Source: an uncultured Pseudomonadota bacterium
GTDB taxonomy: Bacteria; Myxococcota_A; Polyangia; Fen-1088
Assembly (NCBI GenBank): GCA_963847705.1
Contig: CAWKBC010000008.1
Location: 32,001-96,000 of the forward strand
Reading direction: 5' to 3'
DNA: 64,000 nucleotides
Under the pieces are notes generated by a model. That model ran no database searches. It was not told the DNA's origin and saw nothing but the letters and a program-made list of their open reading frames with translations. Below, in pieces: positions 38,444 through 54,949 of the stretch (position 1 is the first letter of the stretch; the number at the start of each line of letters is the position of its first letter). The position numbers and the translations under genes are program-made.

Positions 38444-39445
38444 ATGACCACGCGGACTTGCAGACGGACCTGGCTCGCCACCCTGATTGGAATCGGCGCT
38501 CTGTTGCTGGCGGCCGACTCATGCGCAGCGTCACCGCTCCCCGGCGGCCAGCCGCTGCGGGACCGGGCTGCCGGCTACGAGATGACGGTGCTCGTCGACG
38601 GCGTCCCGGCGGCGACCTACGAGTACGGCGGCGGGACCTACGTGCTCGGCCAGCTCGGGGCGCGCTACACGCTCCGCGTCGCCAACCACTCCGGCCGCCG
38701 CGTCGAGGCGGTCGTCTCGGTCGACGGGCGCGACGCCATCGACGGCCGGCCGGCCGACTTCCGCGGCAAGCGCGGCTACCTGATCCCCGCCTGGGGCTCG
38801 GTCGAGATCGACGGGTGGCGGATTCCGCACAGCGAGGCGGCGGCGTTCCGCTTCTCCTCGGTCCCCGAATCGTACGCCGCGCGCACGGGCAACGCGCGCG
38901 AGGTGGGCGTCATCGGCGTCGCGGTCTTCCCCGAGCGGTACGTTCCGCCGGCGCCGCCCGTCTACTCTCCGCGCCGGCCGGACGAGCTTCCCTATTCGTC
39001 GCGCTCGCGCGAGGAGAGCTCGCGCGGCGGCGGTTTCTCCGACGACAAGGCCGCTCCACCGCCGGCCTCCCCGCAGGCATCGGCCGAGTCCAAGCGAGCC
39101 GGTGGGCTCGGACGGAGCGCCAGCGGAGCGCCGATGGACGCCGAGGCGCAGGCTGTGCCCGCCAAGAGGTCGCGGCCGGGCCTCGGCACCGAATACGGCG
39201 AGGCGGTGAGCTCGCCCATCTATGAGGTCGAGTTCGTCCGCGCCAACGCCGGCCGTCCGGCCGCATTCCTGGGTGCGCACTACAACGATCACGACGGCCT
39301 CCTGGCCATGGGGATCCCCGTCGATGGGCCGGAGACCTGCGAGGATGACGCCGATCTGCGCAACAGGGCCGACCCCTTTCCCGCCAGCGACGGCCGTTAC
39401 GCGGCGCCTCCGCCCGGATGGCGCCGCTCTTGCGGCTGGCGCTAG
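38444..39445 (+). CDS. Conserved secreted hypothetical protein, first gene of an ECF operon
   Basis: RBS aggagg and a signal peptide; G.RYTLRV.N.SGRRVEAVVSVDG.D.IDG, RGYL, IDGWR, F.FS...SYA, VGVIG.AVF.E, LGT.YGE. Confidence 0.75.
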   Translation: MTTRTCRRTWLATLIGIGALLLAADSCAASPLPGGQPLRDRAAGYEMTVLVDGVPAATYEYGGGTYVLGQLGARYTLRVANHSGRRVEAVVSVDGRDAIDGRPADFRGKRGYLIPAWGSVEIDGWRIPHSEAAAFRFSSVPESYAARTGNAREVGVIGVAVFPERYVPPAPPVYSPRRPDELPYSSRSREESSRGGGFSDDKAAPPPASPQASAESKRAGGLGRSASGAPMDAEAQAVPAKRSRPGLGTEYGEAVSSPIYEVEFVRANAGRPAAFLGAHYNDHDGLLAMGIPVDGPETCEDDADLRNRADPFPASDGRYAAPPPGWRRSCGWR

Positions 39446-39467
39446 GGACGGCGAGGATGCCGTCTCG

Positions 39468-40106
39468 GTGGACGGCGACTCCTCGGACGAACAGCTGCTG
39501 GCGGCTTACCGAGGTGGTGACGTGCGAGCCTTCGAACGACTCCTGGCCCGCTACGAAAAACCGATCTGGAGCTTCCTCCGCCGCTTCGTGCGCGACGCCG
39601 AAGCGGCGGAGGATCTGTTGCAGGAGGTGTTCTTGCGCGTGGTGCGCGACGCGCAGGCGTCGGGGCCGGCCTGGAAGGGCCAGGCGAAGTTCTCGACCTG
39701 GCTCTACACCATCGCGCGCAACCTCTGCATCGACCGCGCGCGCCGCACCGCGGTTCGGGGTTCCGCGTCGCCGTCGATCGACGGTCTGACCGAGGGCGAC
39801 GCGGAGGCGATGACCCTGCACGAGCGGATCGCCGCGCCCGGTCCTTCGACCGACGCGGTGGTGGCGGGACGAGAGGCGGCGCGCCGGATCGATCGCGCGG
39901 TCGCCGAGCTGCCCGACGACCAGCGGGAGGTCTTCCTGATGCGCGAGGTGATGGAGATGCCGTTCGCCGAGATCGCGGCCGTGGTGGGCGTCTCCGAGCC
40001 GACGGTCAAGAGCCGGATGCGCTACGCGCTCGAGAAGCTGCGGGCAGCGCTGGGCGACCTCGGCGACACCAGCTCGGGCGCAACCGAATCAACGGGGTCA
40101 GGATAA
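39468..40106 (+). CDS. ECF RNA polymerase sigma-70 factor
   Basis: SDEQLL..GD..AFE.L..RY, AEDLLQEVFL, FSTWLYTIARN..ID, LP..QREVFL.R, EIA...TVKSRMRYA. Confidence 0.95.
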   Translation: MDGDSSDEQLLAAYRGGDVRAFERLLARYEKPIWSFLRRFVRDAEAAEDLLQEVFLRVVRDAQASGPAWKGQAKFSTWLYTIARNLCIDRARRTAVRGSASPSIDGLTEGDAEAMTLHERIAAPGPSTDAVVAGREAARRIDRAVAELPDDQREVFLMREVMEMPFAEIAAVVGVSEPTVKSRMRYALEKLRAALGDLGDTSSGATESTGSG

Positions 40107-40131
40107 GGCAGGATGAGGATGGACGGCTCAG

Positions 40132-41436
40132 ATGGCGAGTAGCTGCCAAGACGTCTCCGCCCGGGTGATGGAGCTCCTCTACGGGGAGCTGTCGGGCGAC
40201 GACCGCGCCGCGCTCGAGGCGCACCTGGCGGGGTGCGCGAGCTGCGCCGCAGAGCTGGCGGCCTTCCAGAGCACGCGCGCCGTCGCCCGACGCGCTCTCG
40301 AGGGCGACGAGCCGCCGGCCCGCGCACATCAGGCGATCCTGCGGGCGGCGGCGGCCGCCGTCGCGGCGAAGGAGGCGAAGCCGACCGGGGCACGCCTCGT
40401 CGCGCCGCAGCCCTCATTCTGGGAGCGCTGGCGCGCGCGCTGGACCCTGCCGACGTTCGCCACGATCGGCGCGGTTGCCGTCGTCGTGCTCGCCAGCAAG
40501 GTCTTCCTCGAGCCCGACAAGACCGTCGAGCTCGGCCGTCGGGCGCTCCAATCGGCGCCCGCGGAGGCGCCGGCCACCCCGCCCGTGCCGGGACCGCCGG
40601 CTGAACCGCAAGCGACGCCGAGAGAAGCGACGCAAAATGAGGACGAACAGGCGAAAGAGGGGCGACCGGCCCCGGCGGAAAAGAAGCGCCAGGACGAGGC
40701 GCCAGAACGGCTGCAACCTCCGGTCGCGAACAACGCGCCGGCCCGATCGATCGCGGCGGCCCCGGCGGCGCAGCGCCGGCGCGCCGCCCCCGACGGTTTC
40801 GGTGCGCTCGGTCTCACGAAGGGGGGCGGTGCCACGAGCGCGGGACGAGCCAAGGCTCCAGCTGCAGGCGGGGTCTCCTTCGAAGATGACCTGGCGGCTC
40901 CGCCACCCGCCGGGTTGAAACCGACCAAGCGCGAGTTCGCACCGCCGCCCCCGCCGCTCGTCGAGCCCGCGCGCCCGTCCACGTCGGCCGCGAACCAGAT
41001 GAGAGAGCGCGACACGGAGGCCCAAGCGCTCGAAGAGACCGATGCCCCTCCCCCCAATCCTCCTCGGGGGGCCCTGGGCCACGTCGCCGCCAGCGCCGGC
41101 GCGGCGCCCCCGGCGGTGCACGCCAAGGCGGAGGCCAGCGCCAAGACCGAGTCCAAGAAGGCGGAGATACCCTCGGACATGGACAGCCTCGAGGCCGACG
41201 CCAAGTCCGAGACCGGAGCGGAATCCAGGCCGGTCGCCGAGTCGCCGGTGGCGCGCGCCAATCGTCTGTTCGCGCAGGGACAGTGGGGGGCGGCCGCCCG
41301 CGCCTACCGCGAGCTTCTGCGCCGCGATCCCCACAACCGCGACGCCGCCCGCTGGCGCCAGCGTCTCGCCGCCTCCGAGGAGGCGGCCTCCGCCCAGGCA
41401 CCCGCCGTGGCCTCTCCGCCCCCGCCGCGGCGCTGA
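40132..41436 (+). CDS. zf-HC2 zinc-binding anti-sigma factor with TM and C-terminal TPR-like helix pair
   Basis: LYGELS..HLAGCASC (HxxxCxxC), TM (FATIGAVAVVVLA), Pro/Ala linker, ANRLFAQGQW..AARAYRELLRRDP. Confidence 0.88.
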   Translation: MASSCQDVSARVMELLYGELSGDDRAALEAHLAGCASCAAELAAFQSTRAVARRALEGDEPPARAHQAILRAAAAAVAAKEAKPTGARLVAPQPSFWERWRARWTLPTFATIGAVAVVVLASKVFLEPDKTVELGRRALQSAPAEAPATPPVPGPPAEPQATPREATQNEDEQAKEGRPAPAEKKRQDEAPERLQPPVANNAPARSIAAAPAAQRRRAAPDGFGALGLTKGGGATSAGRAKAPAAGGVSFEDDLAAPPPAGLKPTKREFAPPPPPLVEPARPSTSAANQMRERDTEAQALEETDAPPPNPPRGALGHVAASAGAAPPAVHAKAEASAKTESKKAEIPSDMDSLEADAKSETGAESRPVAESPVARANRLFAQGQWGAAARAYRELLRRDPHNRDAARWRQRLAASEEAASAQAPAVASPPPPRR

Positions 41437-45332: not shown

Positions 45333-45463
45333 GGCGCGGTTCGCCCTGGGGCGGCTCAGATTTCTGAGTCGAGGACGCGCCGGAACAGCAGCCTGGACGG
45401 CAGAAAGCGGCGAAATTACTATGGTTCGGAATGACCTCCGGTTGCGCAGACTGGCTTCGAGGT

Positions 45464-45478
45464 TGGCGCAGCAATTGC
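45464..45478 (+). promoter_or_regulatory. Putative sigma54 promoter for the rSAM operon
   Basis: TGGCGCAGCAATTGC: GG-N10-GC with canonical TGGC and TTGC. Confidence 0.65.
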
Positions 45479-45494
45479 TCCAAGCTGACGGACG

Positions 45495-46748
45495 ATGCCT
45501 CCGGTGATTGACGGGCGTCACAGCTCGCTGCCAGTCCTGCCCCGCGCGCCCCGCGCCCTGCCGGCGCAGCGCCACCTCCCGCTGGCAGCCGAGGCGCGCG
45601 ACATCGACCGCGCCTGGCGACCGATCTACGCGGTCTGGGAGCTCACGCTCAAGTGCGACCTCGCCTGCGGACACTGCGGCTCGCGCGCCGGACGCACGCG
45701 CCCGGACGAGCTGGACACCGCCGCCTGTCTCGATCTGGTCGCGCAGATGGCCGCGCTCGGCGTCCTCGAGGTGACCGTGATCGGCGGCGAGGCCTATCTG
45801 CACGCCGACTGGTTGACGATCGTGCGCGCCATCCGCGACGCTGGCATGCACTGTTCAATGACGACCGGCGGACGCGGCGTCACCCCGGAGCTGGCGCGCG
45901 CCGGCGCCGAAGCGGGACTGCGGAACGCCAGCGTCTCGATCGACGGCAACGAGGCGACGCACGATCGGCTGCGCGGCGTGACCGGGGCGTACCGCGCGGC
46001 GCTGGCCGCCGCCGGTCACCTGAAGGCGGCCGGGGTCATCCTCTCGGTCAACACCCAGATCAACCGGCTGTCGATGCGCGAGCTCCCCGACGTGCTGGAG
46101 ACGATCATCGCCCTGGGGGCCCGCGCCTGGCAGATCCAGCTCACCGTCGCGATGGGGCGCGCGGGGGACGCGCCCGACCTGCTGCTGCAGCCCGAGGATC
46201 TGCTGGAGCTCTTCCCGCTGCTGGCGACGCTGAAGGCGCGCTGCGACCAGGCGGGGGTGGCGCTCTGGCCGGGGAACAACATCGGCTACTTCGGCCCCTA
46301 CGAATCGGTCCTGCGGGGCGGCCTGCAGCGCGGGCACATGGCCTCGTGCGGGGCTGGATGCACCACGCTCGGCATCGAGGCCAACGGCGCCATCAAGGGC
46401 TGCCCCTCCCTGCACAGCGTCCCCTGGACGGGCGGCAACGTCCGCGACGCCAGCCTGCAGGACATCTGGGAGCGATCGGCGCCGCTCCGCTACATGCGCG
46501 ACCGCACCGCCGACGATCTGTGGGGCTACTGCCGCACCTGCTACTACGCGGACGTCTGCCGCGCGGGCTGCACCTGGACGGGTTTCAGTCTGTTCGGCAA
46601 GCCGGGCAACAATCCTCTCTGTCACCACCGCGCGCTGGAGATGCGGCGGCAGGGAAAGCGCGAGCGCCTGGTCCAGGTCGAAGCGCCGCCCGGCGCCCCG
46701 TTCGATCACGGCAAGTTCGAGATCATCGTCGAGGAGATCACCCCATGA
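45495..46748 (+). CDS. Radical SAM/SPASM peptide/protein maturase (splicease-like)
   Basis: VWELTLKCDLACGHCGSRAG (CxxxCxxC), IGGE, SVSIDG..HD.LRG, WQIQLT..MGRA; SPASM CGAG..LGIEANGAIKGCPSL..C..C.Y..C..GC..C. Confidence 0.93.
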   Translation: MPPVIDGRHSSLPVLPRAPRALPAQRHLPLAAEARDIDRAWRPIYAVWELTLKCDLACGHCGSRAGRTRPDELDTAACLDLVAQMAALGVLEVTVIGGEAYLHADWLTIVRAIRDAGMHCSMTTGGRGVTPELARAGAEAGLRNASVSIDGNEATHDRLRGVTGAYRAALAAAGHLKAAGVILSVNTQINRLSMRELPDVLETIIALGARAWQIQLTVAMGRAGDAPDLLLQPEDLLELFPLLATLKARCDQAGVALWPGNNIGYFGPYESVLRGGLQRGHMASCGAGCTTLGIEANGAIKGCPSLHSVPWTGGNVRDASLQDIWERSAPLRYMRDRTADDLWGYCRTCYYADVCRAGCTWTGFSLFGKPGNNPLCHHRALEMRRQGKRERLVQVEAPPGAPFDHGKFEIIVEEITP

Positions 46749-47245
46749 GCCACCTGGCACCCTGCCCTGCCTGCAACCGCCACGTCGACGTGGACGAGAG
46801 CGCCTGTCCATTCTGCGCGGCCATGCTCGCGCCTTCGTTCCGCGCGACGCGCCCCCTCGGGCCGCCATCTCGCCGGCTGGGGCGGGCGGCCTTGATGACG
46901 GCGGGCGCTGCGCTGATGGGCGCCGCGGCGTGCAGCGCCAGCGACGCCATCGCTATCGAAACGAAGGACGCCACCCCGTCGTACGACGGCTCGCGCGTGG
47001 TGGCGGCGTATGGCGGGCCGGTCCTGCTCGGAACGGGCGGAACCAGCGGCGAAGGCGGCACTGGCGGCACCGGCAACATCGGCAGCATTGGATTGGGCGG
47101 CGCCGGTGGCGTCACCGACGCCGGCAGCCAGGGAGCGACCGACGCTGCGACCGACGCCGCCCACGCGCGCGACGCCAGCCAGGATCGGACGTTCATCGCC
47201 ATCTACGGCGCACCGTTCGCCGCTGACGAGGAGCCGAGCTCGTAG
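46745..47245 (+). CDS. Putative rSAM substrate: Zn-ribbon + internal lipobox + two XYG motifs
   Basis: ATGA overlap with the rSAM stop; CPAC-x10-CPFC; RRLGRAALMTAGAALMGAAAC; VAAYGGP and IAIYGAP in an otherwise low-complexity chain. Confidence 0.75.
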   Translation: MSHLAPCPACNRHVDVDESACPFCAAMLAPSFRATRPLGPPSRRLGRAALMTAGAALMGAAACSASDAIAIETKDATPSYDGSRVVAAYGGPVLLGTGGTSGEGGTGGTGNIGSIGLGGAGGVTDAGSQGATDAATDAAHARDASQDRTFIAIYGAPFAADEEPSS

Positions 47246-50773: not shown

Positions 50774-52258
50774 TCAGGGGCAGGCGTTCAGCGTCGCCAT
50801 CTGCGCGGTGTAGAGGTTCTGCATCGGGGTCTTCATCGTCGGCCAGGCGGTCATCGGGTTGCCGCCGTTGTCGTCGTTGGTCTCGTAGTTCCAGGCCCAG
50901 GCGCCGTTGTAACCGTTGCTATAGAGGTTGGTGTACAGGTCGGAGCCGTTCACGCCGTCGGTGGTGACGGCCCAGAACTCGCCCATCACCAGGTTCTTGT
51001 CGAGCTTCCAGTTGGACGCCGGGTGGGTGAAGCAGGAGACGCCCGAGCCGTTCGAGGTGTAGTAGTGGACCTCGTAGAAGTCGAGCGTGCCGTTGGCTTT
51101 GCCGCCCGCGGCCGTGAGGGCGGCGTCCGAGTAGAGGTTGGAAAAGCCGCTGGCGGTCGAGCAGGTGTTGAAGGTCTGCGCCCCGCTCGTCACGCGGGCG
51201 TTGGGATCGGTCGAATGGATCGCGGACGCGAACACGTTGACCGTCTTCTGGATGTACATCTGGTCGACCTCGGTCCCGCCGTTGGCCGCGGTCCACCCAT
51301 GCTGGGTGGTCATCCCCTCGGGCTCGTTGAAGATCTCGTACGAGTAGACGCCCGGATTCCCCTTCAACGCCGTGACCAGAGGCACGAGCACGTTGGTCAC
51401 GTAGGCGTTGCGGTTGGCGTCGACGGTGAGGAGATTCTGGTTCTGCGTGCGCAGGGTGGTCGTGATGTTCTCGCCCCCCTGCAGCATGTCGAACGACCAG
51501 AGGCTGATGTTGAGCGCCACGCCCGCGGTGTGGGCGGCGTTGGCCAGGCTCACGACGTCGTTGAGCGCGCCCGAGGTGAGCGGCATGGCCATCCCGCTCG
51601 AGTCGTAGCCGGGCGTCACCGTGCCGTTGGTGTGAAACCACCAGCGGATCACCCGCCCGCCCACCGAGGCGCTGTTGGTGAAGATCGTATTGAACGTCGC
51701 CAGATTGGGATTGGGGATGTCGTTGGCGAAGTTCACCCAGGCGACGTTCAGGCCGCTGGCGAACTTGCAGATCGCCGGGCTGCCAGCGCCGCCCGCTCCC
51801 GTGGTCCCCCCGGTCGCAGGCGTGCCGCCGGTGCCGGTCGCCCCGGCCTTGCCACCCGTGCCGGTCGCCCCGCCCTTGCCGCCGGCCCCGGCGGTCGCGG
51901 AGGCTCCGCCGGTCCCGATCGTCCCGCCAGTGGCGCTGGTGCCGCCGGTGCCGGTCGTGCCGCCGGTCGCCGTCGCGCCGCCGGTGCCGGTCGTGCCGCC
52001 GGTGCCGGTCGTGCCGCCGGTCGCCGTCGTGCCCCCGGTGCCCGGGGTGCCGCCGGTGGCAACGTTGCCGCCCGTGGCAATCGAACCGCCCGTGGCGGTG
52101 GTCCCACCGGTGCCGGTGGCCCCCCCCCTGGCCCCACTGTTCCCACCCTCGCTGGAAGCACCGCCAGACCCGCCCCCGGCGTCATCGGTGCTCTCGGGCG
52201 AGGCGCAGGCAGCGAGGGAGAGGGTCAACAACAGGGGGAGAACACGGGCAGGCTTCAT
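50774..52258 (-). CDS. GH5 endo-beta-1,4-mannanase-like lipoprotein (GH5_10-like)
   Basis: Lipobox LAAC; TGG-repeat linker; GLNVAW..F..D, RWWFH..G, LWSFD, EIFNEPEG (acid/base), DFYEVHYY, MGEF (nucleophile), GAWAW.Y; RBS ggagg. Confidence 0.82.
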   Translation of the reverse strand: MKPARVLPLLLTLSLAACASPESTDDAGGGSGGASSEGGNSGARGGATGTGGTTATGGSIATGGNVATGGTPGTGGTTATGGTTGTGGTTGTGGATATGGTTGTGGTSATGGTIGTGGASATAGAGGKGGATGTGGKAGATGTGGTPATGGTTGAGGAGSPAICKFASGLNVAWVNFANDIPNPNLATFNTIFTNSASVGGRVIRWWFHTNGTVTPGYDSSGMAMPLTSGALNDVVSLANAAHTAGVALNISLWSFDMLQGGENITTTLRTQNQNLLTVDANRNAYVTNVLVPLVTALKGNPGVYSYEIFNEPEGMTTQHGWTAANGGTEVDQMYIQKTVNVFASAIHSTDPNARVTSGAQTFNTCSTASGFSNLYSDAALTAAGGKANGTLDFYEVHYYTSNGSGVSCFTHPASNWKLDKNLVMGEFWAVTTDGVNGSDLYTNLYSNGYNGAWAWNYETNDDNGGNPMTAWPTMKTPMQNLYTAQMATLNACP

Positions 52259-52405
52259 GATTCCTCCGATAAGGAAGGGCGACGGGGCAAGGGGCAACGG
52301 GGGTCACCGGCGCCAAGGGCGCCCCCGCTCGCGGACCTTCACGGAATCGCACAGACGCGAAAACAACTCGAACGACTGGAAGTGCCGCGGCTGGCCTGAT
52401 TCGGC

Positions 52406-53242
52406 TCAGCGTTGTGCCCGAAGGGCCAGTTCCTCGAACGGTCCGCCGGGGTACCGGCGCAGGTAGCGGGCCCCGAGCGTGGCAGCGTCGCCGTCCCGGT
52501 GGGCCACCGCCGCTTCGATGGTCAGCGCCAGTGCCTCCTCGGCCAGGGCGCCGTTGGGGTGCCGATCGAGGTATCGGGCGAGCAGCCCGCGGGCACGCAC
52601 CGGATCGTGCTCCACGCGGAGGGCGCGCATCCCGGCCAGCACCGACCGGGTCTCTTCATCCTCGCGGTCCCGCGCCGCTTCGTGCCTGGTTTCCTGGTGC
52701 CCGGACTCGTCGCGCGCCGCAGAGGGCGGCGCCGCAGACCGGAGGTGCGGAGGTACGATCTGCTCGCGGCTCGTGACTGGCGCGTCCGGCGGTGGCGCGA
52801 CCTCAGGCAGCGGACCCGACGCCGGCGGTCTGGCGACCGCCAGCGGCTGGGCCGCGACCGACACGGCGTGACGGTCGACCAGCCTGTGCGTCCGTGCACG
52901 TTCCGGCGACACGGCGACCGACGAGGCGGCGGGAACGAGCCGCTCGTAGGCGCGCCCGATCCAGCCACGCCACGGCCCGATCGCCGCGCTGGCGAATGCG
53001 CAGCCGCCTATCAACACACCGGCCACGATCGCCGGGCGCAGGAGGCGCGGCGCGCGGCGAGGAGCGTTCGATCGGCCCAGGCTCAGCAGCACGCGCTGCT
53101 TCCGCCCGGGCGGCGACTTGTAAGGCCCCGTCGACCGCACCAGATCGACGAGCCAGGGGTCGACCCCGGACTCCTCGGTCAGGCGCGGTGGATTGCCTCT
53201 CTCGAGGGCCTGTCCGTCGCGGGAATCGTCGTCGCCCCTCAT
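52406..53242 (-). CDS. Putative anti-sigma-like membrane protein with C-terminal TPR-like domain
   Basis: ATGA overlap with the ECF sigma; single TM (AIVAGVLIGGCAFASAAI); C-terminus EETRSV..ALR..A..LL..YL.RHPNGALAEEA..YL.RYP.G. Confidence 0.7.
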   Translation of the reverse strand: MRGDDDSRDGQALERGNPPRLTEESGVDPWLVDLVRSTGPYKSPPGRKQRVLLSLGRSNAPRRAPRLLRPAIVAGVLIGGCAFASAAIGPWRGWIGRAYERLVPAASSVAVSPERARTHRLVDRHAVSVAAQPLAVARPPASGPLPEVAPPPDAPVTSREQIVPPHLRSAAPPSAARDESGHQETRHEAARDREDEETRSVLAGMRALRVEHDPVRARGLLARYLDRHPNGALAEEALALTIEAAVAHRDGDAATLGARYLRRYPGGPFEELALRAQR

Positions 53243-53263
53243 GCGTCGCCCCTCATGCGTCGC
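53230..53263 (-). repeat. 14-bp tandem duplication at the sigma/anti-sigma junction
   Basis: cgtcgcccctcatg x2 followed by cgtcgc. Confidence 0.85.
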
Positions 53264-53835
53264 TGCGCCTCGCGGAACCGCGCGGCCAGCGCCGCGAAAT
53301 CCCTGCGCGCGTGATAGAGGCGGGTCCAGACGGTGTTGAGGGGAACGCTCTGAATGCGGGCGATCTCCTCGCCCGAGAGCCCCTCGATCTCGAACAGCAC
53401 GAAGGTCGTCCGTCGCTCTTCGCGAATCTTGCCCAGGATGGCGAGGAGGATCCGCTGGTCTTCTCGCCGCTCCAGCGCCGCGGAGGGACCCCCGGCGCCG
53501 CTCTGGAGGGCGTCGGGATCCTCGACCCGGCGCTTGGTGAAGATGTGCTTGACCCAGCTGCGGCGGCGAAAGTCGCGCACCTGGCGGCGGGTGATCCGGT
53601 AGAGCCACCCGGCGGGGTTCGCACCGTCGAAGGCGTCGAGTCGCCGGCGCACGACCAGGAAGACCTCTTGCACGATGTCGTCGCGGTCGGCCTCGGCGCC
53701 ACCGAGCGCGCGGATCCAGCGCGCGACCTCCTCGAACCAGGCGTCGTAGAACGACCGAAAGTCCTGGAGGACGCCCGCTGCCCGGGCTGCTTCATGCGCA
53801 CCGCTCAGAGGGCGCGTCCGTGCCAGGACCTTCAT
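53239..53835 (-). CDS. ECF RNA polymerase sigma-70 factor
   Basis: F...Y..WF..V.RW...LG, DDIVQEVFL.V.RRL..F, GWLY.I, R.TFVLFEIEGLSG.EIA.....P.NTVWTRL..AR. TACAAT 9 nt before ATG 53835. Confidence 0.92.
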   Translation of the reverse strand: MKVLARTRPLSGAHEAARAAGVLQDFRSFYDAWFEEVARWIRALGGAEADRDDIVQEVFLVVRRRLDAFDGANPAGWLYRITRRQVRDFRRRSWVKHIFTKRRVEDPDALQSGAGGPSAALERREDQRILLAILGKIREERRTTFVLFEIEGLSGEEIARIQSVPLNTVWTRLYHARRDFAALAARFREAQRRMRGDA

Positions 53836-53908
53836 GGCCGGGCGATTGTATCCGAGGGACGTCGCCAACGTCTCGCCCAACCAGAGGCGATTCGGATATC
53901 GTGGCCTG

Positions 53909-54949
53909 GTGCGTGAAGCGCTCCTTCGCGGCGCGGGCCCGGCCGCCGCGGCGCTGCTCGGTTTCGCCGCCGCAATGGGCGCGCCGGCCCAGGCAGCGCC
54001 GCCCGATGAGTCGAAGCTGCCGTCAGCGCCCGCGCCCGCGAAGCCGCTCGGGCCGACTGCGCCGACGGGTCCCGCGCCGCTCGACGCGTCGTCCGTGATC
54101 GGGGGACCCAGCACCTGCCCGCGTCCCGACGCCGTCTGGAGCGAGCTCGTGACGTTGGTGCCGCCCGAGCGCCTCGCGGCCCGCCTGCGCACGGCGACGC
54201 GCGGCAAGACTCCGCTCGTCGAGCTCGTCGATCTCGGCGTGCCGTACCGGATCCTCATGGCGGGGCAGATCCGCGAGTACCGGGACGACAGCCGGGACTG
54301 CGCCTACCGCGCGCGCATCGCGGCGGTGTTCGTGGCGCTGGCGATCGATCCGGCCCAGTTGCCCGCACAGCTGCCGATGCCGATGCCACCCGTTGCCCCG
54401 CCGTCGCCGGCAGCGCCGCCCCCGGTCGAGGCACTGCCGTCGCCAGGCGCCCGCCTGGATCTGGGCGCGACGGCGGTGGGCGGTCTCGGACCAGAGGCTC
54501 GCGTCGGTCAGGTCGGAGCCGAGCTGCGCTGGTCGGCCGGGCGCCGGCGGCTCGTTCCCGAGGTGGGCGTGACGGCGCTGCTGCCGGTCGACAACACCGT
54601 GGGGGGCGTGCGGCTGCGGCAGTGGCGGCTGCCGATCGACGCTGGCCTGCGCGCCCGGATCGCCGGCCCCCGTTTCGAACGGTACGGCGAGCTCGGCGTC
54701 TCCGCGGCGCTGCTCTCGGAACGCGCGCTCGATCTCGCCACCTCGAGATCGCAGACGGGGCTCGAGCTCGGCCTGCGGCTCGCCGTCGGGGTGTACGCCT
54801 CTCACGCGCGCTTCGCACCCTTCGCCGCCCTCTCCGGCGAGCTGGTCCCCGCTCCCCCGGCGATCTTCGCGCTGCCCGCGGGAACCGTGGGGCACACACC
54901 CATCTTCTGGATCGGCGCGACGGCCGGCGCGTCGCTGGGATTCCTCTGA
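53909..54949 (+). CDS. Secreted/outer-membrane protein with N-terminal CP..C domain and C-terminal beta-barrel-like region
   Basis: Signal peptide; STCP.PD.V, GQIREY.D..RDC..RARIAAVFVALAIDP, Pro linker, then alternating beta-strand pattern ending GASLGFL. TATCGT 6 nt before GTG 53909. Confidence 0.65.
   Translation: MREALLRGAGPAAAALLGFAAAMGAPAQAAPPDESKLPSAPAPAKPLGPTAPTGPAPLDASSVIGGPSTCPRPDAVWSELVTLVPPERLAARLRTATRGKTPLVELVDLGVPYRILMAGQIREYRDDSRDCAYRARIAAVFVALAIDPAQLPAQLPMPMPPVAPPSPAAPPPVEALPSPGARLDLGATAVGGLGPEARVGQVGAELRWSAGRRRLVPEVGVTALLPVDNTVGGVRLRQWRLPIDAGLRARIAGPRFERYGELGVSAALLSERALDLATSRSQTGLELGLRLAVGVYASHARFAPFAALSGELVPAPPAIFALPAGTVGHTPIFWIGATAGASLGFL

Follow-up and report, generated by a model that had tools for sequence, protein, structure and literature searches.

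A two-gene unit in a 64,000-nucleotide stretch of myxobacterial DNA (the window) couples a radical SAM enzyme to a lipoprotein-like partner. The enzyme gene (45495..46748, + strand) encodes a 417-residue radical SAM/SPASM protein of the PlpX type, a candidate tyramine splicease; translation could also begin at an in-frame GTG (45504), a position that holds an ATG in two related loci (L004, L005). The partner gene (46745..47245, + strand) overlaps it by ATGA and encodes 166 residues, the putative substrate. Near the partner's N-terminus lies a Cys4 zinc ribbon, CPAC-x10-CPFC (46763..46816, + strand; C7, C10, C21 and C24). An internal lipoprotein-type signal follows (46871..46933, + strand), made up of RRLGRAA at residues 43-49, a 15-residue uncharged stretch and the lipobox AAA-C63. 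The chain beyond it holds two XYG sites on the same strand: Ala88-Tyr89-Gly90 in AAYGGP (47006..47014, Tyr codon at 47009) and Ile153-Tyr154-Gly155 in AIYGAP (47201..47209, Tyr codon at 47204), the latter 12 residues before the C-terminus. A third tyrosine, Tyr80, is followed by Asp.

The initial annotation of this DNA had drawn both genes and their overlap correctly. The conserved partner elements it named, the ribbon, the lipobox and the YG motifs, all held up; its list was incomplete, since the RL[SG]RAA motif is itself conserved and Tyr80 had been passed over. Flanking genes are unrelated to the pair: a divergent phosphate transporter gene (pit) on one side, convergent HAD hydrolase and potassium-channel genes on the other. 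An Rfam search gave no match within the window. As had been proposed for this locus, no protease, transporter or RRE gene recurs in the flanks of 27 cluster representatives of the 45 listed, surveyed for ORFs of at least 90 residues. The flanking genes that do recur (ECF sigma, RsgA, TrmO, PP2C, PALP, Rieske) track subclades, not the system.

The enzyme is a close relative of the backbone-editing spliceases, and splicing activity is predicted from its sequence. Its best NCBIfam models are TIGR04103 (495 bits, cut-off 725) and TIGR03913 (481 bits, cut-off 591.75), both matched below cut-off; every remaining model scores at most 150 bits. We take PlpX to match TIGR04103. PlpX is assigned to IPR026482 (PMC11002830). 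The TIGR03913 match covers profile positions 12-391 of 477, with positions 392-477 missing. CxxxCxxC at C54, C58 and C61 together with the SPASM domain place the protein in the radical SAM core family. A Nostoc protein that scores 853 bits with TIGR04103, above the cut-off, shares 52% identity with it over 381 residues, and the Nostoc gene lies between a YG-bearing Nif11 precursor and a Y-like gene. Three splicease-family references have 138 columns in common, of which the enzyme agrees at 118 and differs at 20, keeping all ten shared cysteines; near the SPASM entry it has M282 and S284 where the references have W and G. Its motif blocks can be recognized by eye in the PlpX, PcpX and RhaX sequences of PMC11414181 (Table S3).

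Phylogeny and structure were examined as well. A quick tree set it among Myxococcota sequences, which grouped with four references of the splicease family and apart from five further radical SAM proteins encoded in the genome; PlpX itself was absent from the set, and the tree does not show the root because the outgroup branches are saturated. The AlphaFold model (pLDDT 83) has the radical SAM/SPASM fold, and its best PDB folds are PqqE, SkfB and SuiB at about 20% identity. A sequence search of the PDB found no solved splicease, with SkfB and PqqE as best matches, and the ESM Atlas returned Myxococcota clusters only, at 0.96. This is the one splicease-type enzyme in the 6.1-Mb assembly (85% complete). 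The PlpX-type assignment made at the outset is thus borne out: when compared with TIGR03913, TIGR04103 and TIGR04133, as had been suggested, the enzyme favors the first two by far, and at no more than 150 bits a heme, PQQ or sulfatase maturase is ruled out. The suggested kinship with TIGR04133/TIGR04134 systems is not supported: the TIGR04133 score is 139.5 bits where the cut-off is 425, and the partner lacks a TIGR04134 match. Nor is the citing of TIGR03913 as a radical SAM/lipoprotein pairing, as enzymes of that family adjoin DUF1843 peptides and not lipoproteins.

Enzyme and partner are linked across Myxococcota. We analysed the best 80 of 228 enzyme loci, whose named records are nearly all Myxococcota or unclassified proteobacterial MAGs. 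A ribbon-bearing partner is present at 71 of these 80 loci, immediately downstream in 62. Of the nine partnerless loci, four have less than 250 nt of downstream sequence and two have an upstream variant with a 9-residue spacing. Partners share one architecture: a Cys4 zinc ribbon, RL[SG]RAA, a hydrophobic stretch, the lipobox Cys and a low-complexity stalk, usually with one to six xYGxP motifs. They make up a large Myxococcota family: a leader-only profile, built with the YG region left out, matches 1,451 clusters at E<=1e-10, a number that rises to 4,158 at E<=1e-3, the weak tail of its matches including generic ribbons. We looked through 151 genomes of the phylum: the leader profile matches in 37, the enzyme is present in 43 and both occur in 29, so that 14 of the 43 enzyme-bearing genomes are without a leader match. 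At E<=1e-5, 22 of 23 leader-bearing genomes also carry the enzyme at E<=1e-80, and the 23rd has it in pieces. Linkage and motif counts are not independent because the loci are related; the pairing pattern nevertheless spans many families. No longer, fused form of the partner leader turned up among 150 candidates, a count that carries little weight.

Partners also occur away from an enzyme gene. The pair had been described as a minimal two-gene locus; the system is not strictly two-gene, since contig C7 of the same genome (G000:C7:39062-39860; L089 7062-7860, - strand) encodes two orphan partners of 110 and 103 residues, each with one YG, and between them lies the frameshifted relic of a third. 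Their neighbors are a UvrD-like helicase, a thioredoxin and an ECF-type sigma factor, with no splicease-type enzyme nearby, and the enzyme likely serves the orphans in trans. A protein on contig C34 with two YGAP motifs proved to be an unrelated Pro-rich protein without a ribbon and was set aside. At some loci (L030-L033, L035-L038, L040, L047 and L058) a pair of enzyme paralogues occurs together with several partners in tandem, and the second paralogues form a clade of their own. Genome G049 has two enzyme copies, on contigs C69 and C128 (L117, L120); each is broken into two frames beside intact partners, reflecting either assembly error or decay.

Tyrosine in the partner stalk is nearly always followed by glycine. 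In partners at the 80 loci, 291 of the 305 tyrosines downstream of the ribbon-distal cysteine belong to Tyr-Gly pairs, with Gly making up 25% of residues. Around them the consensus is [PA]-x-Y-G-[AG]-P-[PA], and 13 different kinds of residue occupy the X position across partners. YG counts run from zero to six per protein, mostly two to four, over 110 complete partners that include one unrelated ribbon protein and one truncated protein, and the last YG lies a median of 8 residues from the C-terminus. Among the best 150 matches to the leader profile, the Cys stands where expected in 147, of which 133 have a YG, and 322 of 370 tyrosines are in YG. By comparison, YG accounts for 29 of 458 tyrosines in 277 candidate lipoproteins picked from the genome by pattern, and for 2 of 20 in the subset of 75 with similar stalks. 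Aligning the neighbors of homologues, the check that had been set for this locus, thus found YG sites and zinc ribbon alike conserved, and the linked precursor with conserved XYG sites expected of a splicease is there at 71 of the 80 loci. None of the grounds for rejection named at the outset that sequence can address was borne out.

Some partners depart from this pattern. In P0200, P0213, P0260 and some of the locus partners, Ser or Ala takes the place of Gly after the Tyr of the C-terminal motif, possibly reflecting relaxed specificity. In distant partners (L107, L110, L114, L102), YG stands right behind the lipobox Cys as C-Y-G or C-A-Y-G, and two of these proteins have PF11617 motifs. Not every YG need be a target: in the known precursor RcsA, DYG is left unspliced, as described in PMC11626197.

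The enzyme likely converts the YG sites to keto-amides, because the enzyme-partner pair recurs across myxobacteria. We propose that a PlpX-like enzyme splices its coupled partner at two XYG sites and that the partner is then exported and lipid-anchored at Cys63, an account that we consider moderately probable as a whole. In this lineage, enzyme and partner would be co-transcribed from a sigma-54-dependent promoter. The cytoplasmic enzyme would bind the partner's N-terminal region, through the ribbon, the RL[SG]RAA helix or both, which would take the place of the type I Y protein. Tyramine would then very probably be excised at Tyr89 and Tyr154 before export, to leave alpha-keto-beta-amino acids; cytoplasmic splicing at each XYG would match what is described for spliceases (PMC11414181, PMC11626197). 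Processing by Lgt and LspA at Cys63, which we consider likely, would remove ribbon and signal together, so a dedicated protease or transporter would be unneeded.

The product would be a flexible, lipid-tethered stalk bearing several ketoamides, whose most plausible task would be to trap Ser/Cys proteases, whether in the envelope or on vesicles. The tethered protease trap is our leading guess, a tentative one drawn by analogy, because the spliceotides examined inhibit Ser/Cys proteases through their ketoamide (PMC11626197). According to a 2022 review, no native spliceotide end product had by then been isolated, and what such products do in nature was an open question (PMC9811515). A lipid-anchored substrate, if real, would point to the membrane or vesicle fraction as the place to look for the product and would make that role testable. 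An enzyme whose substrates offer 13 kinds of X residue could also serve protein labelling.

The zinc ribbon may act as a docking module. C7, C10, C21, C24, R12-H13 and P22-F23 are invariant in 49 of 49 aligned leaders, for which the four Cys and the Pro were themselves the selection pattern, and Pfam gives weak DZR-type matches. In TIGR03913 (GDL)-type enzymes of Azospirillum, Aureibacter and Ralstonia, a CxxC-x10-CPxC ribbon sits at the C-terminus in three of three cases, within the TIGR03913 model and beyond the point where the myxobacterial enzyme ends; the DUF1843 peptides inspected have none. The myxobacterial arrangement is the reverse, with no ribbon on the enzymes of the tree set or on the 120 closest homologues. 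A splicease-like enzyme on a Tropicibacter oceani plasmid (L093:2201-3823) carries a partner-like zinc ribbon fused to its N-terminus. Because of this complementary distribution, and because the activating element of binary spliceases sits on the precursor, enzyme and substrate may have in the ribbon a common docking part. The Tropicibacter operon also encodes another radical SAM protein, a phosphotransferase and two peptidases.

The docking role is suggestive at this stage because a generic ribbon scores equally well. Partner and GDL-enzyme ribbons align in hhalign with 92% probability, and the partner-ribbon profile gives the ribbons of an unrelated membrane protein (P0160) 14-30 bits against 20-31 bits for enzyme-fused ribbons, so specific homology between the two could not be established. 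These scores favor a serious competitor, to which we give somewhat less than even weight: splicing and lipidation are real, and the ribbon is unrelated to the enzyme, being a generic cytoplasmic module that binds metal or a partner, or a means of delaying export. Myxobacterial proteins with cytoplasmic N-terminal ribbons and other partners do exist, GltJ among them (PMC11135422), and such a ribbon would be compatible with most steps of our mechanism. The complementary distribution across the two systems and the Tropicibacter fusion argue against it. A bolder reading, which we regard as rather doubtful, is that the ribbon moved from a TIGR03913-type enzyme to the front of a lipoprotein signal. 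There it would be a docking or activating handle, retained in the cytoplasm and lost at signal cleavage, and the outcome would be lipid-anchored multi-ketoamide stalks in a large and polymorphic family, arrayed at the surface as protease traps. Such a relocation, if true, would mean that RiPP leader and lipoprotein signal no longer compete for the N-terminus.

The partner is predicted to be a membrane-anchored lipoprotein. R47, A49 and C63 are invariant in 49 of 49 aligned leaders, an uncharged stretch of 12-20 residues follows RL[SG]R in 99 of 103 partners, and the invariant Cys lies in the context [AG]-C-[GS], with Gly or Ser mostly next. By pattern, the segment thus has the basic n-region, hydrophobic h-region and lipobox Cys of a lipoprotein, and lgt and lspA are present in the genome. 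Ordinary candidate lipoproteins of the genome have stalks of the same type. Distant partners differ in hydrophobic sequence and keep its character and the Cys, followed in two of them by the PF11617 motifs. The signal does not sit at the N-terminus: it starts at about residue 43, the lipobox Cys falls at residues 61-63 (quartiles), and only 20 of 110 partners have an internal Met ahead of the basic motif. It is also Ala-rich, with a mean hydrophobicity of 1.58 against 1.95 in the genome's stalk-bearing candidate lipoproteins, which were themselves selected at >=1.2.

The strict conservation of RL[SG]RAA exceeds what a signal needs and suits a protein-binding helix equally well. It thereby lends something to a second, improbable explanation, an ordinary spliceotide RiPP in which residues 1-63 serve as leader, made up of the ribbon and an activating helix comparable to PlpY or to the RhaA leader, Cys63 stays unlipidated and housekeeping proteases release short ketoamide peptides. 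Binary spliceases do use a leader helix as activator (PMC11414181), and the partner's repeated cores are separated by poorly conserved spacers. An invariant Cys in a lipobox context behind an uncharged stretch argues against such a leader, as do distant partners that vary in sequence yet keep the signal character, cores that have no conserved cleavage motif and flanks that have no recurring protease or transporter. That this diverged clade acts at YGxP by another chemistry, such as a Tyr cross-link, is very unlikely: scores under both family cut-offs, M282/S284 in place of W/G and the few Tyr-Ser or Tyr-Ala partners would allow it, against which stand 52% identity to a TIGR04103 member, motif blocks in common with characterized spliceases, a target motif that is the splicease motif and other RiPP maturases at <=~150 bits and ~20% identity.

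A lipid-anchored, spliced partner would combine two known themes. Splicing has been described, as have RiPP-lipoprotein hybrids; our literature searches brought up no description of a myxobacterial ribbon-lipoprotein as a splicease substrate. Scott et al. 2022 reportedly typed the spliceases, types II, III and V among them, and may include the myxobacterial clade. According to PMC10849128, their survey took in YG-rich neighbors from 189 genera and confirmed 27 pairs. The myxobacterial pair shares its enzyme family, its XYG target and, often, several sites per precursor with the type I systems PlpX/PlpY/PlpA and PcpXYA (Pleurocapsa). It differs from them in having no Nif11 leader (the partner has no Nif11 match), no double-glycine cleavage site and no separate Y protein among the ORFs examined, the gene after the enzyme being the partner; its substrate instead has a zinc ribbon, a signal-like segment and a lipobox. 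With a TIGR04103 score short of 725 as well, it falls outside type I.

Other known systems each share part of this design. The binary type II systems RhaX/RasX/RcsX (Rheinheimera) likewise have two components, no Y protein and a recognition element on the precursor, and their products inhibit proteases, as described in PMC11414181 and PMC11626197; theirs is a short peptide precursor with a helical leader, and their enzymes have a long C-terminal tail absent here. TIGR03913 GDL maturases with DUF1843 peptides have a core ~50-53% identical and a CxxC-x10-CPxC ribbon within the system, yet their ribbon is on the enzyme C-terminus and their substrates are mostly short peptides without a lipobox; in score, C-terminal extension and neighboring peptides our locus lies outside that family. 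TIGR04133/TIGR04134 systems also pair a radical SAM/SPASM gene with a lipoprotein-type partner, and differ from the myxobacterial pair in the scores given above. Nearest in logic are the DAG-RiPPs described in PMC13056109 (DybA/DybH, NedABC), with cytoplasmic modification, predicted Lgt/LspA maturation and no dedicated protease or exporter. Theirs are MNIO enzymes and N-terminal signals, whereas here the enzyme is a radical SAM protein and a folded ribbon precedes the signal. That RiPP enzymes can act on lipoproteins has its precedent in these MNIO enzymes (PMC13056109); the terms 'splice' and 'radical' do not occur in the main text of that paper. Should our proposal hold, radical SAM enzymes would join MNIO enzymes in forming RiPP-lipoprotein hybrids, and a recognition module would stand ahead of the signal, whereas that paper expects leader-independent or follower-based routes.

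Expression of the pair is likely sigma-54-dependent in this lineage. A -24/-12 element, TGGC-N7-TTGC, lies upstream of the enzyme gene (45464..45478, + strand), and the genome has rpoN. The window holds six such sites against 2.27 expected, a number reached by 5 of 100 shuffles and weak on its own. Scored 148-195 nt upstream of the residue-45 codon, the element is kept in 11 of 73 loci, including 6 of the 6 closest (with a varying spacer), against 3 of 146 control stretches. A sigma-70 scan found no promoter, and no + strand terminator was found behind the partner. A 14-bp palindrome, CTCAGATTTCTGAG (45355..45368), starts 109 bp ahead of TGGC, is the sole CTCAG-N4-CTGAG in the 6.1-Mb assembly and is a candidate site for a sigma-54 activator. 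By a pattern defined after the alignment had been seen, it occurs at 6 of the 73 loci, the present one plus L001-L005. L003 and L005 keep it although neither yielded a match to the divergent pit. Its distance to the sigma-54 site is 109-110 or 76-78 bp, classes about three helical turns apart. Because the promoter element is found in 6 of 6 closest loci and 11 of 73 overall, and the palindrome in close relatives only, the sigma-54 promoter read at the outset stands for the closest relatives and not as a general trait.

Two ECF sigma genes also lie in the window (39222-41436 and 52406-54258), and a zf-HC2 anti-sigma-type gene comes after the first. Near them, at 50774-52297, is a gene for a GH5-like lipoprotein that has the same kind of Gly/Thr stalk as the partner.
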